From: a phage
Assembly (NCBI GenBank): GCA_014750165.1
Contig: GCA_014750165.1_4319.1
Length of the DNA stretch: 45,917 bases
Strand: one strand, 5' to 3'
Numbering within the stretch: position 1 is the stretch's first letter; each line of letters opens with the position of its first letter. The position numbers and the translations under genes are program-made. Of this stretch, positions 2,902 through 41,206 are shown piece after piece. The notes below the pieces were generated by a model. That model made no database searches, was not told where the DNA came from, and was given only the letters and a program-made list of their open reading frames with translations.

Positions 2902-3221
2902 AACGAGCGGTGTATCTACAGTACCAGTCAGAGCCAACAGATGCCGAACTGGAAGCTATTGGGATGCGCCGCTCCGATTACGAAGATGAAGAGCCTGAAG
3001 TTTTACACTTCGACGAAAACATGATGAAGGCGTGGGACATTTACTGTTCAATGGCTACGCAATGGCGAGTCGGAGCTAACGGAGCTACAGGCCTAGATTA
3101 CAACGTGCTAAATTTCCTCTTTAGAGTGTATAATGTTTCTGAAGAAGAATTGGTACTCAGCGATTTACGCATCCTTGAAGCTAAGGCTCTTGAGATGATG
3201 GATAACCTGAGAAAAAAATAA
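2587..3221 (+). CDS. tail assembly chaperone G-T fusion (via -1 frameshift at 2892-2898)
   Basis: The downstream ORF 2910..3221 has no RBS of its own and lies in the -1 frame of the G-like ORF. This is the conserved lambda G/GT arrangement. Confidence 0.7.
2892..2898 (+). other. -1 programmed frameshift slippery site A_AAA_AAC
   Basis: Zero-frame codons are gtA AAA AAC TAA. A -1 slip reads AAA AAA CTA AAA CGA GCG GTG, which is in frame with ORF 2910..3221. Confidence 0.75.
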
Positions 3222-7416: not shown

Positions 7417-7470
7417 CACTTTTTGTTAAGAGGAAGGCGCAGGAATGCGCTATCCTCTAATCTCTTAAAC
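7413..7470 (+). promoter_or_regulatory. degenerate box cassette (T-spacer variant)
   Basis: ATAGCACTTTTTGTTAAG, then a long GAGGA..GCGC/GCGC..TCCTC hairpin and a weak TATCCT hexamer at the 22-nt spacing. Confidence 0.4.
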
Positions 7471-14744: not shown

Positions 14745-14810
14745 CTCGTTAGTTTAAGTGCGGCGATTATACCGCACAGAATTTATTGTTCTTTAGCAAT
14801 TCGTGCTATT
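14745..14810 (-). promoter_or_regulatory. box/-10/leader cassette
   Basis: Minus strand reads AATAGCACGAATTGCTAAAG, 22 nt (GTGCGG..CCGCAC hairpin), then TATAAT (14771..14766). Confidence 0.6.
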
Positions 14811-15453
14811 TCTTTTCCAGCAGCAGCTTGATGTCAATGCCGAGATTATTCTCAATCAATCCGGTCAGCGCATCATTCTTTTCTTTAAGGGCGAAGCATT
14901 GGGCTTCATATTTAAATCTCTCCTCCATCTCATCCGATCGACTAACCCAACATTGTCTAGCCTCACAAGCCAGCATATCGAGCTTTTCATCGGTATTCTT
15001 ATCCATGAGTAAAATCTCATTTATTCTTTGCTCTGCAACAATTCGCTGGCTCAGGTGTGCATTTTGCGCATTAGCCACACCAAGCATCATTCGAGCCTCT
15101 TTTAACTCATCAATGCTTACCATCTGGCTGATTACTTCTGCTTGCTTTTTAACTAATGCCTCCAGCTCATGAAGTCGACGGATTACTTTGTGTCGAAGCA
15201 CGACACTGTAGCCAGTGATTAGCGTTTCAGTGAGTTCCTTGTTGAGTAAAATCTCAGATGTATAGCCTCGATTGTCTGTAAGTAGTTGATAATCATCATG
15301 CCCCAAATCTGGGGCATCGTTATAATGTAACAATTCATTGATCATTTCCTTTGTGTCGCGAACGACGTGATCATGACGTTTGCCGGTTAACTCTGCGATT
15401 TCCTTTGTGCTCATCATGGTTTTTGGTTGTTCTTTGTACGCTTTAATGTTCAT
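14806..15453 (-). CDS. Rha-family phage regulatory protein
   Basis: STKEIAELTGKRHDHVVRDTKEMI matches the Rha N-terminal domain pattern. ATG 15453 preferred over the track start 15534. The stop TAG lies inside the box. Confidence 0.75.
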   Translation of the reverse strand: MNIKAYKEQPKTMMSTKEIAELTGKRHDHVVRDTKEMINELLHYNDAPDLGHDDYQLLTDNRGYTSEILLNKELTETLITGYSVVLRHKVIRRLHELEALVKKQAEVISQMVSIDELKEARMMLGVANAQNAHLSQRIVAEQRINEILLMDKNTDEKLDMLACEARQCWVSRSDEMEERFKYEAQCFALKEKNDALTGLIENNLGIDIKLLLEKK

Positions 15454-18640: not shown

Positions 18641-21238
18641 TTATGGCCTCATGAATCTAATTGCAGCCTGACCAGACACGCTAACTTCAGATGTATTGTG
18701 ATTAACTAAGAATACGTTAACACTACCAGTCCCGCCACCAGCCCTGGATGCAAATATATCAATACCACTAAGCCCAGAACTAACATCCACGTTTATGAAA
18801 TCACCATACTTAACTCCAGGGACGCTAACTGTTCCTAGAAATGACATTCCACCATTAGCTGCAAGTGTAACAGTGTAGTCAATATATGAAGGCTGTGAGA
18901 ATCCATTAATGAAAACAGATCCATTAACAAGCCCGCCAACATCACAGTTACTTGTGTAATCTATTCTGCTATCAGCGGATGCAGAGAGAGGGTAAGAGTA
19001 CTGCGATCCAGAGACTACAGGTAGGTTGCTTGCGCTAACCCTTACATTTGAACCTGAATTTGCAAGCACTACATAAGAGTTTGCTCCATCACTAATAACA
19101 TCAGAACTTCCACCAGAAACAAAACCAGATAAGTTGACTCCTGAAATATCAACGTCTGAGTTTGTGAATCTAAAAAGATAAGCCTCCTGTCCTTTCGGGT
19201 TTTGGTTTCTCCATGACGGTATCGAAAACCCTGAAATCTTTGCTGAATTGCAGTCAATAAGAACAAAGTCTGATCCGCCATTAATATTAACCTTTGATGA
19301 TTCATGCTGCATTCCAGTTATCGTCAACCCAGGGCACTGAGTTGCAATAAACGGCGTTAAGTTTCCAAAATTAGAGCTGCCATCGTACGCGCAGTTCACC
19401 AAAGTAGCTACGTGACAGTACTTTAGCGCCCATGACGCATAGCAATCAAGCGAGTAGCATGATGAGTACTTAACGGTTGTCCCGTAGTCTTTCCTAAAGC
19501 CCTGAATGCAATCCCACGCCCAGCAATTAACATACTCCATCAAATAAGCTGACGTCACATCGTAGAATCCATAGTAGGCACCTCTTACTATTACATTCTC
19601 AACCTTAAAGTTTGTAACTCCACCTGCGAGAGGGTCAATTGAAGAATCTCTGGTTCCAAAATCAATGCCACGACTAAAACCACTGTCTGTCGTTGGCTTA
19701 CCAGACTGATAGTTAATCCAAAAGTTAGCTATTGACCCACCTGGTTGATATCCGGTAGGGAAGTGCTCGAATCCAGAATGATCACCAGAGCATTGTATAA
19801 TTGTTCCGTATTTTGAATTTGGGTAGGTTGATGCCCCTCTTATGTTTTGAGTTCCGAAAAGTATTGGCCCACTAGTCAAAATTACACCTGGAGGAAAAGT
19901 CACATCCTGAAGCGTCGATGTTGCTCTGTTTGCTGCCGCGGTGTCATCACTTACACCGTCAGCTTTCACTCCAAACCATCTAGCATCAACTGGACCAGTG
20001 TAGCTTCTCTTCCATCTTCTATCCAATGCGTCAACAAGAATAGTACCATCATTGTCCTCGCTAGATGTGTCTGAATCATCTCTCTGGAATATACCAAAAG
20101 CATTATCTGCGATCGTCTCTCTTCCGTAACAACTAATGGAATAATCAGAACCCGAATAACCCCTTATGTCGCTATAGTTTGCCGAACCTATTTTTGAGAG
20201 TGAAGACACTCCTCCAAGATCTGCTTTTGAGTAAACGTCAAGATTAATTCTCGCAGCTTCTTTATTTGGGATGTCGCTAAGGTTGGAAGACCTTAGAAAG
20301 GTTTCACCCTTCGAGTAAACATCAAGCAACCCCCTAACCCTCAAGGCGCTAGAACCACCAGTAGCACCATCTCCACCAGGAACGCTTAGAAGTTCCCTTA
20401 CATAAAAATTCCTAGAACCAGTAGCTCCAGTAAAGGTAATTTCCGCAACCCTAAAAACTGCGTTTGAGGTTGTAGAAGGAGAAATTCTTACTACGTTACT
20501 TCCATTAATACCACGCGTTGCAAGAACATCAATACAAATAGTGGTGTTTGTCGCCGGGAACATTGAACTTAAGTCTGCCGGAATGTTAACCATGTTGTCA
20601 ATTTTGCACTGGTAACTACCACCTGAATAAAATTGCATTGTCTGCCAATCAAGAGATGTTAAAAGTGGAGTTGTTGTGCTTCCTATACCGTGTTCTGCAA
20701 AGTAAGCCACTGCGGCGGTATTCCCGGCTGCATTTATTGCGGCAACGGTTCTGTTGTATGAGTTCTGTGCATTATTGCTAGCACCAACGGCAGTTGATGC
20801 GCTTTCTGCGGCAGCAACCTGACTAGCAAGCGCCTCCGCAGCTCCAGTGGTGGATTGATTTGCAAGTTGCTCGAATCGAGGCCAGTCGAAAGTGTCTTGA
20901 CCAATAAATTGCAGCAATCCTTCGATGGATGTCTCCTTAGACTGGTAGTAACGCAAAGTCTCTGCTACATCCTGAGCTAAACCCTGAACGGTAATCCCAT
21001 CGTGAGCAAGGATCGCATAACCAGTTCCTGCAGGAACAGTTTCAGAATTAGGGTTATAAACATTAATCTGCGTATCGCTGATGATTTCTGAGATGGTGTA
21101 AATCTTCAGGGGGCTTGTTTTAAAAATAATGGTTGCACCTACACGAATCAGTGTAAGCGGTGCTTTCCATGTTGTTCCGACCCCAGTCACCTCGCCATTT
21201 GCGGCTAGCGACGCTGTTCCTAAGTCATAAATTGCCAT
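18641..21238 (-). CDS. tailspike / side tail fibre with beta-helix depolymerase-like domain
   Basis: ATG 21238 (MAIYDLGTASLAANGEVTGVGTTW, a T1-type fibre N-terminus). The central WFGVKADGVSDDTAA... stretch is typical of pectate-lyase-like beta-helices. Confidence 0.75.
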   Translation of the reverse strand: MAIYDLGTASLAANGEVTGVGTTWKAPLTLIRVGATIIFKTSPLKIYTISEIISDTQINVYNPNSETVPAGTGYAILAHDGITVQGLAQDVAETLRYYQSKETSIEGLLQFIGQDTFDWPRFEQLANQSTTGAAEALASQVAAAESASTAVGASNNAQNSYNRTVAAINAAGNTAAVAYFAEHGIGSTTTPLLTSLDWQTMQFYSGGSYQCKIDNMVNIPADLSSMFPATNTTICIDVLATRGINGSNVVRISPSTTSNAVFRVAEITFTGATGSRNFYVRELLSVPGGDGATGGSSALRVRGLLDVYSKGETFLRSSNLSDIPNKEAARINLDVYSKADLGGVSSLSKIGSANYSDIRGYSGSDYSISCYGRETIADNAFGIFQRDDSDTSSEDNDGTILVDALDRRWKRSYTGPVDARWFGVKADGVSDDTAAANRATSTLQDVTFPPGVILTSGPILFGTQNIRGASTYPNSKYGTIIQCSGDHSGFEHFPTGYQPGGSIANFWINYQSGKPTTDSGFSRGIDFGTRDSSIDPLAGGVTNFKVENVIVRGAYYGFYDVTSAYLMEYVNCWAWDCIQGFRKDYGTTVKYSSCYSLDCYASWALKYCHVATLVNCAYDGSSNFGNLTPFIATQCPGLTITGMQHESSKVNINGGSDFVLIDCNSAKISGFSIPSWRNQNPKGQEAYLFRFTNSDVDISGVNLSGFVSGGSSDVISDGANSYVVLANSGSNVRVSASNLPVVSGSQYSYPLSASADSRIDYTSNCDVGGLVNGSVFINGFSQPSYIDYTVTLAANGGMSFLGTVSVPGVKYGDFINVDVSSGLSGIDIFASRAGGGTGSVNVFLVNHNTSEVSVSGQAAIRFMRP

Positions 21239-21261
21239 TGCGTAAAGTCTCCATTTGTAAA

Positions 21262-21292
21262 ATAGCACGAATTGCTAAGTTGGATTGTAGCA
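21262..21292 (-). promoter_or_regulatory. extended -10 promoter with an inverted orphan box at the predicted transcript start
   Basis: Minus strand reads TGcTACAAT (-10 at 21289..21284). The box (21262-21279) is in the opposite orientation to the gene and starts about 7 nt downstream of the hexamer. Confidence 0.45.
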
Positions 21293-21301
21293 TCTTTCAG
21301 G

Positions 21302-21327
21302 TATAAAAAAACCTCCCGAAGGAGGTT
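21302..21327 (-). terminator. intrinsic terminator after the primase gene
   Basis: Minus strand reads AACCTCC-TTCG-GGAGGTT followed by T8. Confidence 0.8.
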
Positions 21328-22249
21328 AGTCTAGTAATTCACTTGCTTTGTATATTCGTTTTCTTATTCCTGACTTAAAAAAATTATCATCATTTGGCAT
21401 TACCACATCAAGATCGCGATCGTCAGCAACGGCGAGTAAATCAAAAGCGTGGCGAGTACAAGCGACGCGTAACTTGTAGTTTCTAAGCGCGTAAGCAACC
21501 ATTTCCATGTTGTAACTGGAGTGGCAAACAAGCACACAGCGGTTCCCTGTAGCAATGTGAACGCGATAGCCGTCAATGAAATTATCGACCAGATAAGCGT
21601 ACTCATCATCTTTAAAGGAACCAATAACAGCAATAGACTGGCGAGTATAATCTTTTGCAGCATAACTAACATCTCCCTCTTCATTGATAAACATTACATT
21701 GCACATTTCTTCTGATATACCATCACTATAGGCCATAAAACAAGGCACTGCGTGTATTAGTTCGCCTGATTTTGCCCTGCCAACATCAAAACCAAACTCA
21801 CTATAGATACCCTCGTATGTACTGAGCGGAGTTGATTCTACTCTTTCCGTCCTTTCCATTATCTCTAAGCATCTTTCGTGATCAATCTTGGCTCCCATTT
21901 TGTAGATCTGGGTTCTTGATGCTTGCTTGTTTGCCTTGTTGACAACCTCAACCGGGATAAGGTTTAGCCACTCACCGAGAACGTCGATACACTCACTGAA
22001 TGACTCGCCTCGAAGCTTCTGGACCCAGAGAATTCCATCCCCTGAGCCGCATTGGTTGCAGATAATGCCGCCATCACCCTCCTCGCTAACCTTGTTAGTC
22101 CATCTTGCCCTATCGTTGCCGCCACAATAAATGCACGGCTGATGCTTCTTAGTCTGGAAAAACTTAGGATCTGCGCCGCATATATTGACAAGAGCCTTAT
22201 CCCACAGGCCTCTCATTCTTGGTAGAACCTCTTTCTTATCGTAGTGCAT
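21326..22249 (-). CDS. DNA primase (P4-type zinc-binding domain)
   Basis: CIYCGGNDRARW...CNQCGSGDGILW matches the primase zinc-ribbon pattern. 307 aa. Confidence 0.7.
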   Translation of the reverse strand: MHYDKKEVLPRMRGLWDKALVNICGADPKFFQTKKHQPCIYCGGNDRARWTNKVSEEGDGGIICNQCGSGDGILWVQKLRGESFSECIDVLGEWLNLIPVEVVNKANKQASRTQIYKMGAKIDHERCLEIMERTERVESTPLSTYEGIYSEFGFDVGRAKSGELIHAVPCFMAYSDGISEEMCNVMFINEEGDVSYAAKDYTRQSIAVIGSFKDDEYAYLVDNFIDGYRVHIATGNRCVLVCHSSYNMEMVAYALRNYKLRVACTRHAFDLLAVADDRDLDVVMPNDDNFFKSGIRKRIYKASELLD

Positions 22250-22270
22250 ATCAATCTATCTCTTAACAAA

Positions 22271-22301
22271 TAAAAAAGGATGTACCGATTATGGCACATC
22301 C
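22271..22301 (-). terminator. intrinsic terminator
   Basis: Minus strand reads GGATGTgCC..GGtACATCC followed by T6. Confidence 0.65.
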
Positions 22302-22307
22302 AATTAT

Positions 22308-22781
22308 TTACCCTTTAGCTTTTCGTGCTGCCTCGTTAGCGGCCTTAATCTTGCGCCATGATCGACACTCTGGCTTGGTGGCTAACTCAGCCTCAGTAAC
22401 CACGCGTAGCATGTGACGCTTTTTGCACCGGAGTGTCAGTGGCTTGCCGTTACCGTCAAATTGCAGGTCTGGTCGGCAGAATGTAGCACGAAAACCCTCT
22501 CCGTTTCGTTTGTAGTAGTTGTGCGACAGTTGAGCACCGCGCGCAGAAATCATACCACGCTTAAACCATTCTTCTACAGCCTGCGGAGTTACCTTTAACT
22601 TCTTTGCAATATTCGCCTTTGTGACGAAGAAATCAAGGAGCATCTCAAGCCGCGCGCGTAGCCCGGCTCTTACTTCATCTTTTAAAACGTAGTAGCCTGA
22701 AGGTCGTTTACGTTGTTTTTTGTCTTCAGTGCGGATAGTTCCGTTATTACCGTTAGTGGTTCGCTTGTCAACTGCATTCAT
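22308..22781 (-). CDS. helix-turn-helix DNA-binding protein
   Basis: ANIAKKLKVTPQAVEEWFKRG is HTH-like. Basic N- and C-termini. 157 aa. Confidence 0.6.
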   Translation of the reverse strand: MNAVDKRTTNGNNGTIRTEDKKQRKRPSGYYVLKDEVRAGLRARLEMLLDFFVTKANIAKKLKVTPQAVEEWFKRGMISARGAQLSHNYYKRNGEGFRATFCRPDLQFDGNGKPLTLRCKKRHMLRVVTEAELATKPECRSWRKIKAANEAARKAKG

Positions 22782-22793
22782 TTCATCACCTCA

Positions 22794-22840
22794 ATAGCAT
22801 TTTTTGTTAAAAGTCATTCAGATTTGATGGTAGTATTGTA
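22794..22840 (+). promoter_or_regulatory. box cassette (T-spacer variant) upstream of the helicase
   Basis: ATAGCATTTTTTGTTAAAA, a 21-nt spacer, then TAGTAT (22831-22836). Confidence 0.45.
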
Positions 22841-22863
22841 CTCAATTAAACGCTACAAGACAA
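22835..22863 (-). promoter_or_regulatory. sigma70-like promoter for the HTH gene
   Basis: Minus strand reads TTGTCT (22863..22858), 17 nt, TACAAT (22840..22835). It overlaps the + strand TAGTAT hexamer. Confidence 0.5.
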
Positions 22864-22882
22864 TTTTTATAGGAATTTAGAT

Positions 22883-24877
22883 ATGTTGCCTATCGAGAAG
22901 CTGGTTGCAAACTTCGATAAAGAAAGAATCAAGCAGATTCAGAAAGATTATCAGTTTGGCGAGATAACCCCTTACGAGTTCCAGTGCGTAACATTCGATG
23001 CAATCGGAAAGGCTATTGGAAAGTACGAGGCCCCATTTATCGCTGACCTTTCCGTGTCTGCGGGTAAGACAATTATTCTCGCTATGATTGGAAAGCGTAT
23101 GGAGCAGCTTGGTCTTCCTTATATGGTCCTCTCTCGCCAGTCAGAGATAATCAGCCAGAACTCAGAAGAGCTTCGCAACTTCGGCATCCGTAACAGCGTC
23201 TATTGCGCTGGCCTTAACGTTAAATCAGTTTACTACCCAACCATAGTCGCTAGTGAAGGTACCGCGGCTAACGGCTTGTTTAAGGGGCTTGGTGACTATG
23301 TTCCGGCAGTTATCGCAATCGATGAGTGTCACATGCTTGATGCTATGGATATCGTTGAAGCCGAGGAGAACGAAGAAACATTTGAGCAAATGAGCACAAA
23401 GAAAGGTGAGATGGTATTTAAGGATGGTGTTAATACCGGGTTGCTTGGCACTGGCCGCGCGCAGTACACGCTAATCATTACCGAGATGAAACGTCGTTGT
23501 CGTGAGAAGTACGGTCGCGAGCTTAGGATTTTTGGCCTTACTGGTAGCCCATATCGTAACAACGATCACATTGTCGTTAGTAACCAAAATGTCCGTGGAT
23601 TCTGGCGCAAAACGGTAATACAAGTACCAACAAATTACCTTGTTGATTTGGGATTCGTTGTTCCAACCGTTTACGGAGAGGTTGGTGATTTGGGTTACGA
23701 CCTTGCAGAGTTTGCGCCAGACGGAAGCGATGGCGTTAAAGACTTTAGCAAGAAAGAAATGGAAGCAATGGCTGCAAAGATTCACGACAACCAATCCATG
23801 ACTCAAAGGATAATGGGTTTTGTTGTAAAAATACTTGAGACTCGAAACGCCGCATTGGTCACCTGTGCTGGCAAACTCCATTGTGATGAGGCTGCTGCGG
23901 CACTCCCAGACGGATACCCCTACGCCATCATCACAGACTCCACTGGAGAGAGGAAGCGCAGAGAGATTCTAGCTGATTGCCAGACTGGAAAGTACAAAAT
24001 AATATTCCAGATTGGCTGTCTAACTACGGGCGTAAACCAGCCATTGTGGGATACCAGCGTTATACTGCGCAAGATTGGCAGTTTGACTTTGATGATTCAG
24101 CTTCTTGGTCGTGGCATGCGAAAACTAAAAAAGGCGCACATAGATGCGGGGTTCAAGAAGGAGGATCACTTGGTATTAGACTTTGCCGGAGCGCTGGATG
24201 ATATGGCCGAGCTTTACTTTGACCCAATAATTGAAGAAATTCAGGCTGAGAAGTTCAAGTCCTCAAGGAAAGGTGGTGATGAGGCCCGTCAGTGCCCGCA
24301 ATGTGGATATGAGAACTCACCATTTGCTCGACGCTGTGGCAATAAGATTGATGGTGTTAGATGCGATCACTTCTTTCAGTTCACAACTTGCGAAGACATT
24401 ACGGACCCACAAACTAAATCGGTAATTAAAAAGGGATGTGGCGCTCGTAACGACATAGCGGCAAAGGTTTGCCGAGAGTGCGGTGAGATGCTTAAAGACC
24501 CGAATGCTAATCTGACCGGTAAGATGTATCGTCGAGGAGATTACTTGCGCGTTTATGATTTCCAGATTGGATTGAGTAAAAATCAAACAGGAATAGTAGT
24601 TAAATACAACATCATGGCACATAACGGAGAGAGGTTTAACGCGTGGGAATTCTTTAACCCTGAGTCTGACCATCGAGTTTGCAGTGTTCTATGGAAAAAC
24701 TTCTGCCTAGCTCATATTGAGAATCGAACAGAAGCAGCACGAATTGGAAGATTAAAGAATGCTAGAATGATCATGACCAACGTAGATAAGTTCCGTGCGC
24801 CAGTGCAAGTAACACACAGAAAAAACGGCAAAGGAAAGGACGTGATCGCGTTTAAGAATTTTGGAGAATTGAAGTGA
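22883..24877 (+). CDS. SF2 DNA helicase (DEAD/DEAH-like) with C-terminal zinc ribbons
   Basis: Walker A SAGKT, motif II DECH, and CPQCG..C..C plus CRECG in the C-terminus. Confidence 0.8.
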   Translation: MLPIEKLVANFDKERIKQIQKDYQFGEITPYEFQCVTFDAIGKAIGKYEAPFIADLSVSAGKTIILAMIGKRMEQLGLPYMVLSRQSEIISQNSEELRNFGIRNSVYCAGLNVKSVYYPTIVASEGTAANGLFKGLGDYVPAVIAIDECHMLDAMDIVEAEENEETFEQMSTKKGEMVFKDGVNTGLLGTGRAQYTLIITEMKRRCREKYGRELRIFGLTGSPYRNNDHIVVSNQNVRGFWRKTVIQVPTNYLVDLGFVVPTVYGEVGDLGYDLAEFAPDGSDGVKDFSKKEMEAMAAKIHDNQSMTQRIMGFVVKILETRNAALVTCAGKLHCDEAAAALPDGYPYAIITDSTGERKRREILADCQTGKYKIIFQIGCLTTGVNQPLWDTSVILRKIGSLTLMIQLLGRGMRKLKKAHIDAGFKKEDHLVLDFAGALDDMAELYFDPIIEEIQAEKFKSSRKGGDEARQCPQCGYENSPFARRCGNKIDGVRCDHFFQFTTCEDITDPQTKSVIKKGCGARNDIAAKVCRECGEMLKDPNANLTGKMYRRGDYLRVYDFQIGLSKNQTGIVVKYNIMAHNGERFNAWEFFNPESDHRVCSVLWKNFCLAHIENRTEAARIGRLKNARMIMTNVDKFRAPVQVTHRKNGKGKDVIAFKNFGELK

Positions 24878-25293
24878 ACATAACAGATAAAGAATATTAC
24901 ATTGAGTTTTACCCAGGTTCAGTTAAGTCATGCCCGAAAGAGGATGACGAACAAATCTTTTGCTCTGATTGGGTTAAGTATAACTATCCAGAGATGGTAT
25001 TTTTCCACTGTGTGAATGAGGGTAAGAAAACCATTGGTCAAGCAAGAAAAGACCAGGCAAAGGGTTTGCTCAAGGGCGTATCAGACTGCATGTTTTTGAT
25101 ACCTGAATCCGTGCGAGGAAGGTATCCATTTGGCGCAATAGAGCTAAAGAGAGCTGGAAAAACACAGGCTAGCCCAGTCAGTAACGAGCAGAAGTCATTC
25201 CTGAAAAGTGTAAGGGAATCAGGAGGTTTCTCCGCTGTGGCTTACGGTCGCGAGGGTTTTCTGGCAGCATTCAAAGAAATGATTTCTAAATAG
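24874..25293 (+). CDS. VRR-NUC domain nuclease
   Basis: GTGA overlap with the helicase. GVSDCMF..IELKR matches the D..E-x-K core. The stop TAG lies inside the box. Confidence 0.7.
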   Translation: MNITDKEYYIEFYPGSVKSCPKEDDEQIFCSDWVKYNYPEMVFFHCVNEGKKTIGQARKDQAKGLLKGVSDCMFLIPESVRGRYPFGAIELKRAGKTQASPVSNEQKSFLKSVRESGGFSAVAYGREGFLAAFKEMISK

Positions 25294-25354
25294 CACGAAT
25301 TGCTAAACTCGATTTTAAAAGATGTTGTATAGTTACTTCATAGAAACGAAACAC
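25289..25354 (+). promoter_or_regulatory. box/-10/leader cassette
   Basis: AATAGCACGAATTGCTAAA, 22 nt, TATAGT (25328-25333), then TCATAGAAACGAAAC. Confidence 0.6.
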
Positions 25355-25580: not shown

Positions 25581-25645
25581 ATAGCACGAATTGCTAAAGA
25601 CTAATCGGTGAGGTGGTGTATTATCACCACATCGAAACGAAACGC
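25581..25645 (+). promoter_or_regulatory. box/-10/leader cassette
   Basis: ATAGCACGAATTGCTAAA, 22 nt, TATTAT (25619-25624) in the loop of GTGGTG..CACCAC, then ACATCGAAACGAAACGC. Confidence 0.6.
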
Positions 25646-27920: not shown

Positions 27921-27985
27921 TAGCGCTTTTTGTTAAAACGATACCCGCGAAAGCGGGTATTATTGTTTTATCGAAACGGCAGGGG
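27919..27985 (+). promoter_or_regulatory. box/-10/leader cassette (T-spacer variant)
   Basis: AATAGCGCTTTTTGTTAAAA, 22 nt (ATACCCGC-GAAA-GCGGGTAT hairpin), TATTAT (27958-27963), then TATCGAAACGG. Confidence 0.55.
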
Positions 27986-28002: not shown

Positions 28003-28485
28003 ATGATTTTTTTATACTATAAGGATGGAAAGGTTTTCTGGAGAGATCCGCACTGCACGAGATTGAAGCCAGGTGATGAGGCTGGTAGTAGGCACCATAG
28101 GGGTTATTGGTATATTCGTAGATATGACAAAACAATGTCAAGGCACCGAATCGTATGGGAGATGCACAACGGAACAATACCAGACGGTATGGAGATAGAT
28201 CATATAAATCACGTGCCTGGTGATGACAGAATTGAAAACCTAAGAATGGTCACAAGAAGGCAAAACAATCAAAACAAAAAATTAAATGAAAGAAATACAA
28301 GCGGACACGTCGGGGTTAGCTGGAACAAGAAGACAAACAAATGGAGAGCAATGATAGGCATAAGGGGAGAGGACGGAAAGAGGAAAACTTTATACGTTTA
28401 TTATGGTGATTCTTTCGATGATGCGGTATCAGCAAGAAAGAAAGCAGAGGCTGAGCACTCGTTTCATGAAAATCACGGTAAATAG
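28003..28485 (+). CDS. HNH homing endonuclease with AP2-like domain (copy 2)
   Basis: HRIVWE..EIDHINHVPGDDRIENLR followed by GVSWNKKTNKWRA. The RBS-backed ATG at 27993 is out of frame by one across a T7 run (28007-28013). Confidence 0.8.
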   Translation: MIFLYYKDGKVFWRDPHCTRLKPGDEAGSRHHRGYWYIRRYDKTMSRHRIVWEMHNGTIPDGMEIDHINHVPGDDRIENLRMVTRRQNNQNKKLNERNTSGHVGVSWNKKTNKWRAMIGIRGEDGKRKTLYVYYGDSFDDAVSARKKAEAEHSFHENHGK

Positions 28486-34043: not shown

Positions 34044-34535
34044 CTACCTCATTCCGCTGTTCTTGTGGTATTTCGCATTAACCTCAGCAACAATCCTCGC
34101 CTCGCAAGCACAGATAAAGTCTATGAATGTTCCTAAACATACAATTTTCCCATCTATGCTAATTCTTGCCGACCACTTACCTCTAACATCCATGTTCACA
34201 CCAGTTACCCCTGGCTTTCTTCTTACATACCTTTTGAGATTCTTATGATTTTCCATGTGGCTAACTAGCCTTAAGTTTTCAATCCTATTATCAGACCTAT
34301 CTCCATTAATGTGGTCGATCTGCATTCCTTTTGGTATATCTCCGTTGTGAATAATCCAGACCGCTCGATGGCAATAAATTAGCTTATTCTTAACCCTAAA
34401 TGCCTTGTATCCATGGCTATGCATGCAGCCAGCCTCGTCACCAACTTTTACTTGGGATGAGTTATACTTTCTGTAAAGTTTCCCATCCTTATACTCTACG
34501 GCGTTTACAATATCCTCAACTAGAATGGCACACAT
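34044..34535 (-). CDS. HNH homing endonuclease with AP2-like domain (copy 3)
   Basis: HRAVWI..QIDHINGDRSDNRIENLR followed by GVNMDVRGKWSAR. Confidence 0.8.
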   Translation of the reverse strand: MCAILVEDIVNAVEYKDGKLYRKYNSSQVKVGDEAGCMHSHGYKAFRVKNKLIYCHRAVWIIHNGDIPKGMQIDHINGDRSDNRIENLRLVSHMENHKNLKRYVRRKPGVTGVNMDVRGKWSARISIDGKIVCLGTFIDFICACEARIVAEVNAKYHKNSGMR

Positions 34536-35030: not shown

Positions 35031-35299
35031 AATTACGCAATGGTTACACTATAATATCTATATATAACAACCATTTAGTATAATTATTATTATTATATAT
35101 ATTACTATGTATATCATGTAACCACGCATCCGGCGGGGGTCGATAGTTTTTCTATGAAAATGACATTTTCTATATATATAAGGATAGGCATATACCCTCC
35201 CCGATTTCCGCGGAAATCCATACACAGGCAAATTACATACGCTATAGCTGGGCTGAGGTAGCAAAAAGCGTAACCGGGGCCAATATAAACACGAAATAA
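35031..35299 (+). repeat. control-region repeat, copy B
   Basis: Collinear with 15666..15938. The core is 35031-35122 and the second block is 35233-35299. Confidence 0.8.
35258..35299 (+). pseudogene. remnant of the 5' end of the ORF-15902 homologue
   Basis: GTA GCA AAA AGC GTA ACC GGG GCC AAT ATA AAC ACG AAA TAA aligns codon for codon with ATG CCA AAA AAC GTA ACT AAT GGC AAT ACC TAC ACG GAA at 15902. Confidence 0.5.
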
Positions 35300-35302
35300 C
35301 AC

Positions 35303-35330
35303 TTGATAACGTGTATATGTGTGTTATTAT
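35303..35330 (+). promoter_or_regulatory. sigma70-like promoter for the rightward small-gene operon
   Basis: TTGATA (35303-35308), 16 nt, TATTAT (35325-35330), then a CATCTTAACGAAGGG leader. Confidence 0.5.
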
Positions 35331-35372
35331 GGATTCATCTTAACGAAGGGCAACCAATCAGGAGTAATGAAT

Positions 35373-35891
35373 ATGTCAGAACATAAAGAAGCAGTAAGTC
35401 TCGGTGAGGTGGTTCGTTACATGGCTGGCCAGGCTTTGGCTAGCGATAATAAATCATTTGCGGTTCCATTGCGCATGATCGTACAGCAAGTGTATGGACT
35501 TGATAAAGTGGATATGATGAGGGTGTACGAAGAGGACCTTACGCCTGGTGGTAAGTATCATCTCAAGAAGCTGAAGGCATCATACGTTTCAAACACAGTA
35601 AGCCGCATGCCTGAAATCAAAGCTGCTAACGTCCGGTCCATGTTCTCACTGAAGGACATGGAGTTTAATGAGGAGGAAGTTCGATGTGCGGTAATCTCAC
35701 TTGTGCCAGGCGCTATCAATACCGGGTCGCGTAACAAAGCAGAAGCAGAGAAGGAGGCGGCTATCATTGAAAAATTCAAGAAGCGACTCTTATCCGTTAC
35801 GCCAAGCGTCATTCACTTGAAAGGTGAGGAGCTTCAGGGTGCAATGTTCGCACTGTCCGCATACCAGGAACTTATTAAGGAGACAAAGTAA
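35373..35891 (+). CDS. hypothetical protein
   Basis: ATG 35373 lies 8 nt after AGGAG (track start is GTG 35319, inside the promoter). Confidence 0.6.
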   Translation: MSEHKEAVSLGEVVRYMAGQALASDNKSFAVPLRMIVQQVYGLDKVDMMRVYEEDLTPGGKYHLKKLKASYVSNTVSRMPEIKAANVRSMFSLKDMEFNEEEVRCAVISLVPGAINTGSRNKAEAEKEAAIIEKFKKRLLSVTPSVIHLKGEELQGAMFALSAYQELIKETK

Positions 35892-36835: not shown

Positions 36836-36897
36836 CACGAATTGCTAAAACAGTATTGGGGTAATTTGGTATAGTTACCCCATCGAAACGAACGAGG
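36831..36897 (+). promoter_or_regulatory. box/-10/leader cassette
   Basis: AATAGCACGAATTGCTAAAA, 22 nt, TATAGT (36870-36875) in the loop of GGGGTAA..TTACCCC, then CATCGAAACGAACGAGG. Confidence 0.6.
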
Positions 36898-38658: not shown

Positions 38659-38736
38659 GCTCTGCTAGCTCAATTGGATAGCAGCAACGACCTTCTAAGT
38701 CGTAGGTTACTGGTTCGAGGCCAGTGCAGAGCGCCA
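38659..38736 (+). tRNA. tRNA-Arg (anticodon UCU), CCA encoded
   Basis: Acceptor GCTCTGC/GCAGAGC, anticodon stem ACGAC/GTCGT with loop CTTCTAA, T arm ACTGG-TTCGAGG-CCAGT, discriminator G followed by CCA. Confidence 0.9.
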
Positions 38737-41143: not shown

Positions 41144-41206
41144 CACGAATTGCTAAACTAAGTCGCCACGGATGGCGTATAGTTACTTCATCGAAACGAG
41201 AGGAGA
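41140..41206 (+). promoter_or_regulatory. box/-10/leader cassette
   Basis: ATAGCACGAATTGCTAAA, 22 nt (CGCCA-CGGA-TGGCG hairpin), TATAGT (41178-41183), then TCATCGAAACGAGAGGAG. Confidence 0.6.

Follow-up and report, generated by a model that had tools for sequence, protein, structure and literature searches.

A putative bidirectional promoter switch between the regulator and helicase genes of a T1-like phage

How might one short intergenic region serve two genes that point away from each other, and which protein would read the repeat that it carries? The question is raised by positions 22782-22882 of a 45,917-nucleotide (nt) stretch of phage DNA (NCBI GenBank assembly GCA_014750165.1, contig GCA_014750165.1_4319.1), the whole of which we call the window. 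The locus lies between a leftward open reading frame (ORF) of 157 amino acids (aa; 22308..22781), labelled "transcriptional regulator" in the annotation of relatives, and a rightward helicase gene (22883-24877). A first-pass annotation of the window had proposed back-to-back promoters with overlapping -10 elements in this gap, and a single protein that, bound at a short box, could activate the helicase operon and at the same time repress the leftward gene; the 157-aa protein was its candidate for the binder. Here, we describe the conservation of this layout across the T1-like phages, and we assign a probability of about one half to the complete model, a bidirectional switch with activation and autorepression by a box-binding regulator.

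The window derives from a T1-like phage (Drexlerviridae). A megablast search with positions 21300-25300 returned 96 phage records at 82-88% identity, all of them T1-like siphoviruses, among which are BEK3, SU57 (classified in the Drexlerviridae, Braunvirinae), Veterinaerplatzvirus and the BASEL "Piccard" phages. The box in the gap belongs to a repeat that has been described before. In phage TLS, 18 intergenic repeats, DR1-DR18, are positioned ~76 nt before start codons and fall into G, T and A subtypes; similar repeats were noted in T1, Rtp and Rogue1, and the authors suggested stoperator, enhancer site or UP-like roles while listing the function as an open question (Kropinski and colleagues, 2024; PMC11447400). 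The box of the regulator/helicase gap is a copy of this published T1/TLS 21-nt repeat, aaATAGCACnnnTTGnTAAAA. Positions 22792-22812 read caATAGCATTTTTTGTTAAAA, a member of the T group with a single core mismatch (C6 to T); the T at the free 'n' position gives TGTTA instead of TGCTA.

The repeat is used throughout the window. We counted 21 box matches where 4.3 were expected, a number equalled in none of 100 shuffles, and ~20 oriented copies of ATAGCACnnnTTGCTAA are spread across the window. Downstream of each copy, a -10-like hexamer (mostly TATAGT) stands at a constant distance, and 5 nt further on comes CATCGAAACGA; the start codon lies 70-85 nt from the box in most units. Boxes precede replication, structural and small early genes alike, and their orientation is always that of the gene. 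The box under study is likewise intergenic and faces the helicase gene, with 89 nt between the start of its 17-mer (22794) and the ATG; the length in excess of the usual 70-85 nt contains the -35 element of the leftward promoter.

On the plus strand of the gap, the box core TAGCATTTTTTGTTA (22795-22809; TAGCA-N5-TGTTA) lies within the 21-nt repeat and is followed after 21 nt by the -10 hexamer TAGTAT (22831-22836), in register with the TATTAT of relatives; no -35 hexamer is present at 16-18 base pairs (bp) from it. The predicted helicase start falls on a conserved CA (22843-22844). This box promoter stands in front of an operon (22883-25293) of the helicase gene and a VRR-NUC nuclease gene (24874-25293), and the next box begins from 25290. 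On the minus strand, the hexamers TTGTCT (-35, 22863..22858) and TACAAT (-10, 22840..22835) are separated by a 17-nt spacer, and from the position of the -10 the regulator mRNA is predicted to start at 22828 with a 47-nt 5' untranslated region (UTR). The box core would thus occupy +20..+34 of this mRNA, 2 nt from the ribosome binding site (RBS) GAGGTGA (22792..22786); the regulator ATG is at 22781. These placements agree with the first-pass annotation: the minus-strand promoter was recovered both on the sequence and by a promoter scan, the 19-mer box (22794-22812) is an exact match within the regulator 5' UTR near its RBS, TAGTAT is found with the box 21 nt upstream, and the two -10 hexamers do overlap by 2 bp (22835-22836). 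Overlapping -10 hexamers on opposite strands are the hallmark of shared -10 bidirectional promoters, and the window has them.

Family-wide comparison carries the case for the leftward promoter. An alignment of 38 homologues led us to 80 loci fetched from IMG/VR, comprising 70 distinct sequences. All 70 display the same order of elements: regulator start codon, RBS, 1-2 nt, T-type box, 21-22 nt, and the -10; adjacency of box and RBS is retained down to 43% protein identity. As a control, the reverse strand of every box unit was scored identically, giving 57 distinct regulator/helicase units and 569 other units. A leftward sigma70 match of at least 9/12 with an overlapping -10 occurs in 98% of the former vs 2% of the latter, and the leftward promoter is therefore specific to the regulator/helicase gap and not a side effect of -10 symmetry. 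The back-to-back architecture, proposed from one genome, is in this way conserved across the family. The heptamer TATTATA stands at the -10 in 79% of the 57 units vs 1% of the 569; it reads TATTAT rightward and TATAAT leftward, and creates in most relatives a 5-bp overlap with predicted starts 18 bp apart. The leftward -35 of relatives, at 16-17 nt, is TTGTCA, TTGAGT, TTAACG or TTGAAT, and the loci with TTGTCA reach an 11/12 match (31 of the 72 loci scanned). The clade of the window reads TAGTATTGTA, with the leftward TACAAT 3 bp further from the box. Even the most divergent relatives, Vibrio phage Vc1 and the loci L084 and L207, at 43-50% protein identity, retain the architecture.

Existing records contain the same promoter. 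In the GenBank record of T1, precisely these hexamers are annotated as a leftward promoter, and the regulator gene is followed by an annotated terminator. A strict search in TLS detected only three intergenic sigma70-like promoters genome-wide, one of which, P57, lies upstream of gp57, with DR11 between P57 and this "transcriptional regulator" gene (PMC11447400). By structural and sequence homology, gp57 is the orthologue of the window regulator. The TLS supplementary table and the T1 record list the leftward promoter without interpreting it. In SU57 (locus L001, MT511058), a promoter called by BPROM at 3001-3033 covers the box and spacer and not the conserved hexamers; we did not adopt that position, which is off the hexamers conserved in the family, and the existing annotation of the regulator promoter in close relatives is probably misplaced. 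We regard it as very probable that both promoters of the gap are real.

A role for the box at the rightward promoter is suggested by the anatomy of its units. We pooled 593 distinct box units from the window and about 200 related loci; the -10 hexamer is 22 nt downstream of the core TAGCA-N5-TGyTA in these units and 21 nt downstream at the helicase unit. Outside the core by which units were selected, the sequence logo shows conserved A residues on both sides of it (-2, -1 and +15 to +17), a G (index 35), the pattern T-A-T-A-n-T (37-42), the dinucleotide C-A (48-49) and a stretch rich in A (53-55). With A49 taken as +1, the G falls at -14 and the -10 at -12..-7; index 7, the centre of the box, comes to lie at -42, next to the position near -41.5 at which class II activator sites are centred; for the helicase unit, the box centre is 22802 and the predicted start 22844. 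Box units lack a -35 hexamer 16-18 bp from the -10, as a class II arrangement would have it. The -35-like TTGCTA within the box is 22 bp from the -10, too far for sigma70, and a TGn extended -10 is found in only two box units of the window. We thus consider the box a probable class II activator site. Its half-sites, TAGCA and TGCTA, are 5-bp inverted sequences with centres 10 bp apart and an A/T-rich middle, much like the operators of Cro and repressor proteins; this spacing and centre would suit a Cro-type dimer.

The copy at the regulator locus is atypical. It is always T-type, and a perfect dyad is present in 19% of units there vs 60% elsewhere, counts that are phylogenetically non-independent. 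A higher occupancy threshold could underlie this difference; equally, so could a need for an A-rich leader beside the RBS.

Box units carry further features downstream of the core. GC-rich hairpins lie within the spacer between box and -10 or flank the -10 (e.g., 27945-27957, 7437-7449 and 41165-41178); stems of at least 5 bp occur in 23% of 629 units, vs 8% for shuffled sequence and 4% for a downstream control region. In the units that bear them, the -10 and its T-rich surroundings would double as the U-tract of a terminator, and in a subset such terminator-like hairpins follow the forward box, so that upstream transcripts would end in box RNA. The idea that the hairpins loop out extra spacer length was rejected: the spacing is fixed, yet only 23% of units possess a hairpin. 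The initial transcribed sequence CATCGAAACGA is conserved from the predicted +1 in most box units (e.g., 41189-41199, 36881-36891 and 25630-25640), with the variant CAATTAAACGC in its place at the helicase unit (22843-22853); it could influence promoter escape, mRNA stability or translation.

A second promoter of the window combines a sigma70-type -10 with a reversed box downstream. The tail-fibre gene, on the minus strand, has an extended -10, TGcTACAAT (21292..21284), a reversed box core, TAGCAATTCGTGCTA (21277..21263), at approximately +1..+15 of the transcript, an RBS (21252..21248), and its ATG at 21238. In all 26 distinct tail-fibre contexts a -10 is found within 24 nt upstream of the reversed box, and in 24 of them it is extended (TGnTAnnnT). 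In 25 of these contexts the distance from the -10 to the beginning of the reversed box is 5-11 nt, at which the box covers the start site; in the remaining one it is 14 nt. The arrangement is also present in T1, in L207 (5050-5110), in L221 (4880-4950) and in many of the loci L003-L082. No divergent gene exists at the tail-fibre locus, and the reversed box must therefore act on the tail-fibre promoter itself. Two sigma70 promoters kept by the family, each with a reversed box downstream, fit repression by a box-binding protein as read from their sequences; one idea for why the tail-fibre gene would be repressed is titration of that protein by replicated genomes.

The regulator gene is also set apart in how it is transcribed. 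An intrinsic terminator hairpin (22301..22278, minus strand) directly follows its stop codon, which makes the gene monocistronic; terminators likewise follow the regulator gene in TLS (T57) and T1. It is among the very few units of the genome not behind a forward box, and intergenic sigma70 promoters are few in the window. An activator needed by all other units would require a promoter free of a forward box, as the regulator gene has.

Taken together, a model for the gap can be proposed. Early in infection, the host sigma70 polymerase would fire the leftward TTGTCT-17-TACAAT promoter and produce the monocistronic regulator mRNA. The regulator, probably as a dimer, would bind the 15-bp TAGCA-N5-TGyTA, and at ~20 boxes, each at -42 of a promoter that has a -10 and no -35, it would serve as the class II activator of nearly all other units, the rightward helicase/VRR-NUC operon included. 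At its own locus, the protein would be bound at +20..+34 of its own mRNA, and the polymerase recruited for the helicase gene would occupy the shared -10 region; competition between polymerases, possibly with a roadblock in addition, would then shut down regulator synthesis. The same protein would repress the tail-fibre promoter, whose start site lies under the reversed box.

That one bound protein activates the helicase operon and represses the regulator gene is plausible on three counts: i) the box is at -42 of -35-less promoters, ii) there is a precedent for such a dual effect in the cyclic AMP receptor protein (CRP), and iii) a second conserved promoter, that of the tail-fibre gene, contains a reversed box. 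The precedent comes from bacterial bidirectional promoters, in which the -10 is held in common, the starts are most often 18 bp apart, and two polymerases cannot bind together; with CRP at -40.5, transcription is activated in one direction and blocked in the opposite one, often by polymerase competition alone (PMC12825309).

The regulator gene (22308..22781, minus strand) encodes an N-terminal arm (aa 5-29), a helix-turn-helix (HTH) domain (~aa 33-108), and a C-terminal extension. The family phrog_2856, "transcriptional regulator", is matched in PHROGs at an E value of 2e-81. Pfam similarity to P22_Cro and YdaS at aa 48-84 is sub-threshold (18.7 bits vs 30.2 and 14.8 vs 30, respectively), and the window protein does not reach the curated cut-off of either P22_Cro or YdaS_toxin; several relatives have precomputed PF14549/PF15943 matches. 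The fold is all-alpha with five helices, the HTH being formed by helices 2-3, as in Cro/YdaS proteins, which agrees with the HTH assignment of the first-pass annotation. Hardly any variation is seen in the arm residues D5-K25 (DKRTxNGNNGTxRGxDKKxRK) or in the first half of helix 1. The basic arm (aa 5-29; 22695-22769, minus strand) is disordered in the AlphaFold model, at a predicted local distance difference test (pLDDT) score of 52-60, and is more conserved than the recognition helix, which points to the arm as an important contact, to judge from the alignment, with DNA or with an equally conserved host polymerase. DNA-facing positions of the HTH are partly kept: S/T65 in 89%, Q67 in 78%, Q/N/E70 in 75% and R75 in 91%.

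The box and the protein are jointly restricted to T1-like phages. The full protein architecture is confined to them: it was found in 826 phage records of 43-53 kb, except for PHB10, the weakest, partial match. The "regulator" of PHB10 (the weakest tblastn match) is part of an ordinary lambdoid repressor region and was set aside as uninformative on the box. At E values of at most 1e-10, relatives make up ~20 clusters among 1.84 billion representatives; short forms of ~80-100 aa have helix 1, the HTH and an "RPDL" core in common, and the ~100-aa forms are without the arm. A search of IMG/VR returned no loci for more distant relatives, among them the armless P0126 and P0119. Exact G-type boxes in that database are confined to T1-sized contigs or fragments. 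In 596 Gb of bacterial genomes, the G-type 18-mer was encountered 13 times, vs ~17 expected by chance by our own estimate, with three of the 13 on one 46.7-kb contig, T1-sized and presumably phage; it is absent there from the E. coli, Klebsiella and Salmonella chromosomes. An exact box at chance level in bacterial genomes gives no sign of a host regulon.

We lean towards the 157-aa protein as the binder of the box. It is the only regulator-like protein found across the family. PHROG scans of 20 further ORFs returned mostly families of unknown function, the named matches being two HNH endonucleases, a DNA repair exonuclease and a membrane protein; the sole other match to 'transcription regulation' is an accessory Ant-like protein (14806..15453). 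The SU57 annotation, too, lists one regulator.

Several observations weigh against the proposed switch. The leftward promoter is a 9/12 match in a consensus scan of the window, where such sigma70 matches are not above shuffled sequence (7 found, 6.3 expected); at this chance level, the window alone does not establish it. The overlap in the clade of the window is 2 bp, with predicted starts 15-16 bp apart vs the commonest 18. The dyad of the box is imperfect: G2 never varies, whereas either C or T occurs at the matching position C12, and the asymmetry extends to the flanks, with AA to the left and AAA to the right. The most conserved part of the protein is its disordered N-terminal arm and not the HTH; the recognition helix is among the least conserved parts (position 66 has an entropy of 3.5 bits), and the surface of helices 2/3 is variable. 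The box is essentially invariant from Escherichia to Vibrio phages while the helix of the Vc1 clade differs. A variable helix and an invariant box weaken the straightforward view that the recognition helix determines which box is bound. Among full-length relatives, even the most divergent (Vc1, L084 and L207) keep the same box, leaving no protein-box covariation that could be scored. Most small phage ORFs, whose functions are unassigned, stay in contention as binders. The searched literature yielded no start-site, binding or timing experiments for T1-like phages, and on the box sequence or the mapping of T1-like transcription it yielded the TLS paper only.

Of the alternatives, the one that survives best accepts the architecture as real and has the box bound by another phage product, either a small early protein or a sigma70-remodelling complex; in that case, the 157-aa protein would act on a different target, as a Cro-like repressor or a replication accessory factor. 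We judge it unlikely, at well below the standing of the 157-aa protein as binder. It would account for a recognition helix that varies while the box is constant, and for box halves that are unequally constrained, the right half TTGyTA resembling a -35 that has shifted by 5 bp; conserved small ORFs are numerous, one of them lying behind the sigma70-like promoter at 35303-35330, and the regulator gene is positioned between those for primase and helicase. The box beside the regulator RBS in every relative is, however, what autoregulation predicts, no further family-wide protein with a recognisable DNA-binding fold is seen among the 20 ORFs scanned, and no alternative conserved dyad is visible in the intergenic region.

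A more speculative proposal, to which we give a small chance, retains the regulator and changes its mode of action. The arm and helix 1, together with the host sigma70 polymerase, would read AATAGCAC plus the -35-like TTGyTA displaced 5 bp upstream; this would be sigma appropriation by a single Cro-fold protein that drives nearly every gene, with the reversed boxes as titratable operators that time expression by genome copy number.

Reading of the box by host RNA polymerase or a host factor, in a UP-like or -35-like manner and with no need of a phage protein, is quite improbable. UP-element-like enhancers are among the options of the TLS authors (PMC11447400), the box is invariant across phages of different hosts, as would fit an invariant host partner, and T-type boxes contain T and A tracts. 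The invariant positions are nevertheless AGCAC and TTG and not the A/T tracts, the centre being variable, and a UP element was rejected on which positions are conserved. The 22 bp between TTGCTA and the -10 exceed the spacers that sigma70 tolerates, and the chance-level count of the G-type box in bacteria speaks against a host regulon. The sigma54 consensus is TGGCAC-N5-TTGC at -24/-12. The box resembles it and was rejected as a sigma54 site: it reads TAGCAC-N3-TTGC, with a spacer 2 nt shorter and A for the first G, and a sigma70-type -10 lies 22 nt downstream. The MotA box, (a/t)(a/t)(a/t)TGCTTtA, is centred at -30 and 11-13 bp from the -10. TTGCTAAA is similar to it, but ~20 bp lie between its end and the -10, and the centre of the box as a whole is at -42; this reading was discarded as well.

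It is very improbable that -10 symmetry alone produces the leftward sigma70 match and that the true promoter of the regulator gene is another. TATAAT-like hexamers are inherently near-symmetric, the 9/12 match of the window is not above chance there, and the BPROM annotation of SU57 puts the promoter elsewhere; but a reverse promoter with a TTGnnn -35 at 16-17 nt separates this gap (98%) from other units (2%), 11/12 is reached in 31 of 72 loci, the promoter was called independently in TLS and T1, and the regulator gene, with no forward box promoter before it, needs a promoter here.

The least probable alternative is that a reversed box near an RBS acts as RNA: it could control how well the regulator and tail-fibre mRNAs are translated, or how stable they are, for instance through base pairing with the RNA of forward boxes. 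In its favour, 1-2 nt separate the reversed box from the regulator Shine-Dalgarno (SD) sequence in every relative, 11 of the 26 tail-fibre contexts have 2 nt between box and SD, and hairpins in some units would leave box RNA at transcript 3' ends. Against it, the regulator 5' UTR is no more structured than shuffled sequence (z = 0.15), Rfam gives no match at the leader (its sole match in the window being a transfer RNA, tRNA), the window clade has 9 nt between box and SD at its tail-fibre gene, and the fixed distance of forward boxes to the -10 points to a role in DNA.

The proposed bidirectional switch has partial counterparts among known systems. Mor and C of phage Mu and Ogr of P2 are phage activators that bind a dyad at or upstream of the -35 position of promoters with a -10 only, and control many operons. 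They are alike in the geometry of activator sites at -35-less promoters, as proposed here, and differ in fold from the Cro/YdaS-type protein of the window; moreover, they serve one temporal class, whereas the box promoters of the window serve replication and structural genes. Compared with lambda cI (OR2/PRM-PR) and the C proteins of restriction-modification systems, the window represents a virulent phage with ~20 scattered sites vs one operator cluster, and Cro and C proteins are without the invariant disordered N-terminal arm and the C-terminal extension of its regulator. The stoperators of mycobacteriophage L5 are likewise many short oriented intergenic sites, and the two reversed boxes in transcribed leaders could block polymerase; unlike stoperators, forward boxes keep a fixed distance upstream of a -10, which is promoter architecture, and the phage is not temperate.

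A further counterpart is provided by the shared -10 bidirectional promoters of bacteria (Warman, Grainger; PMC12825309), in which opposite -10s overlap, as they do in most of our relatives through TATTATA with predicted starts 18 bp apart. Unlike those promoters, one direction here is a self-sufficient sigma70 promoter and the other is -35-less and, as proposed, box-dependent; the regulated gene, again as proposed, encodes the activator itself. DR1-DR18 of TLS have the same consensus aaATAGCACnnnTTGnTAAAA, an intergenic location, orientation with transcription and the same G/T/A subtypes, and DR11 and P57 flank gp57 exactly as box and promoter lie around the window regulator gene; the TLS paper ties the repeats neither to gp57, nor to a fixed -10 at 22 nt, nor to a bidirectional layout (PMC11447400). 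The repeat is thus already known, and a reader of the TLS table and the T1 record could recognise the layout of P57, DR11 and gp57. In the searched literature we found no paper that places the box at -42 of -35-less promoters, identifies the shared -10 bidirectional switch of T1-like phages, notes the tail-fibre operator or proposes a gp57-type box binder. Mechanisms in which a bidirectional promoter is served by a class II activator that also regulates its own gene are well known; new are the protein architecture and the genome-wide use of sites in a virulent phage family.

Other features of the window touch on the same elements. A degenerate box, CAGCACGAAAAGCTA (22330..22316, minus strand), overlaps the final codons of the regulator gene, and 22 nt downstream of it CATAAT (22293..22288) lies in the loop of the terminator. 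TLS has a good box (DR10) and T57 where the window has the degenerate box and terminator, and in both T57 and the window terminator (22278-22301) the -10 of the next promoter is carried in the loop. The primase gene may have its own, weaker box promoter at 22288-22330. On the plus strand, 35283-35335 contains TTGATA-16-TATTAT, a 10/12 match (hexamers 35303-35330) and one of the very few intergenic sigma70-like promoters; it is upstream of a 172-aa ORF (35373-35891; phrog_4841) and bracketed by an ATAACAC...GTGTTAT inverted repeat. This promoter probably corresponds to P01 of TLS, and it could act early, controlled by an operator of its own. Accessory genes also stand behind box promoters, at 34044-34424 (minus), 28003-28485 (plus) and 14806-15453 (minus): two HNH homing-type endonucleases and an Ant-like anti-repressor homologue (phrog_8235). 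A tRNA gene is found at 38659-38733 (plus strand; Rfam RF00005, 52.9 bits), with tRNA-Arg at the corresponding place in relatives.

T1-like phages (Drexlerviridae) are common, are held in therapy collections and are notorious laboratory contaminants, and they direct transcription without a polymerase or sigma factor of their own. A repeat whose published role was open now has a specific and cheaply testable model. If true, the regulator and its boxes would offer a compact natural activator/promoter pair for synthetic biology, and the regulator/helicase gap would be a natural example of the polymerase-competition rule that was shown with engineered bidirectional promoters.

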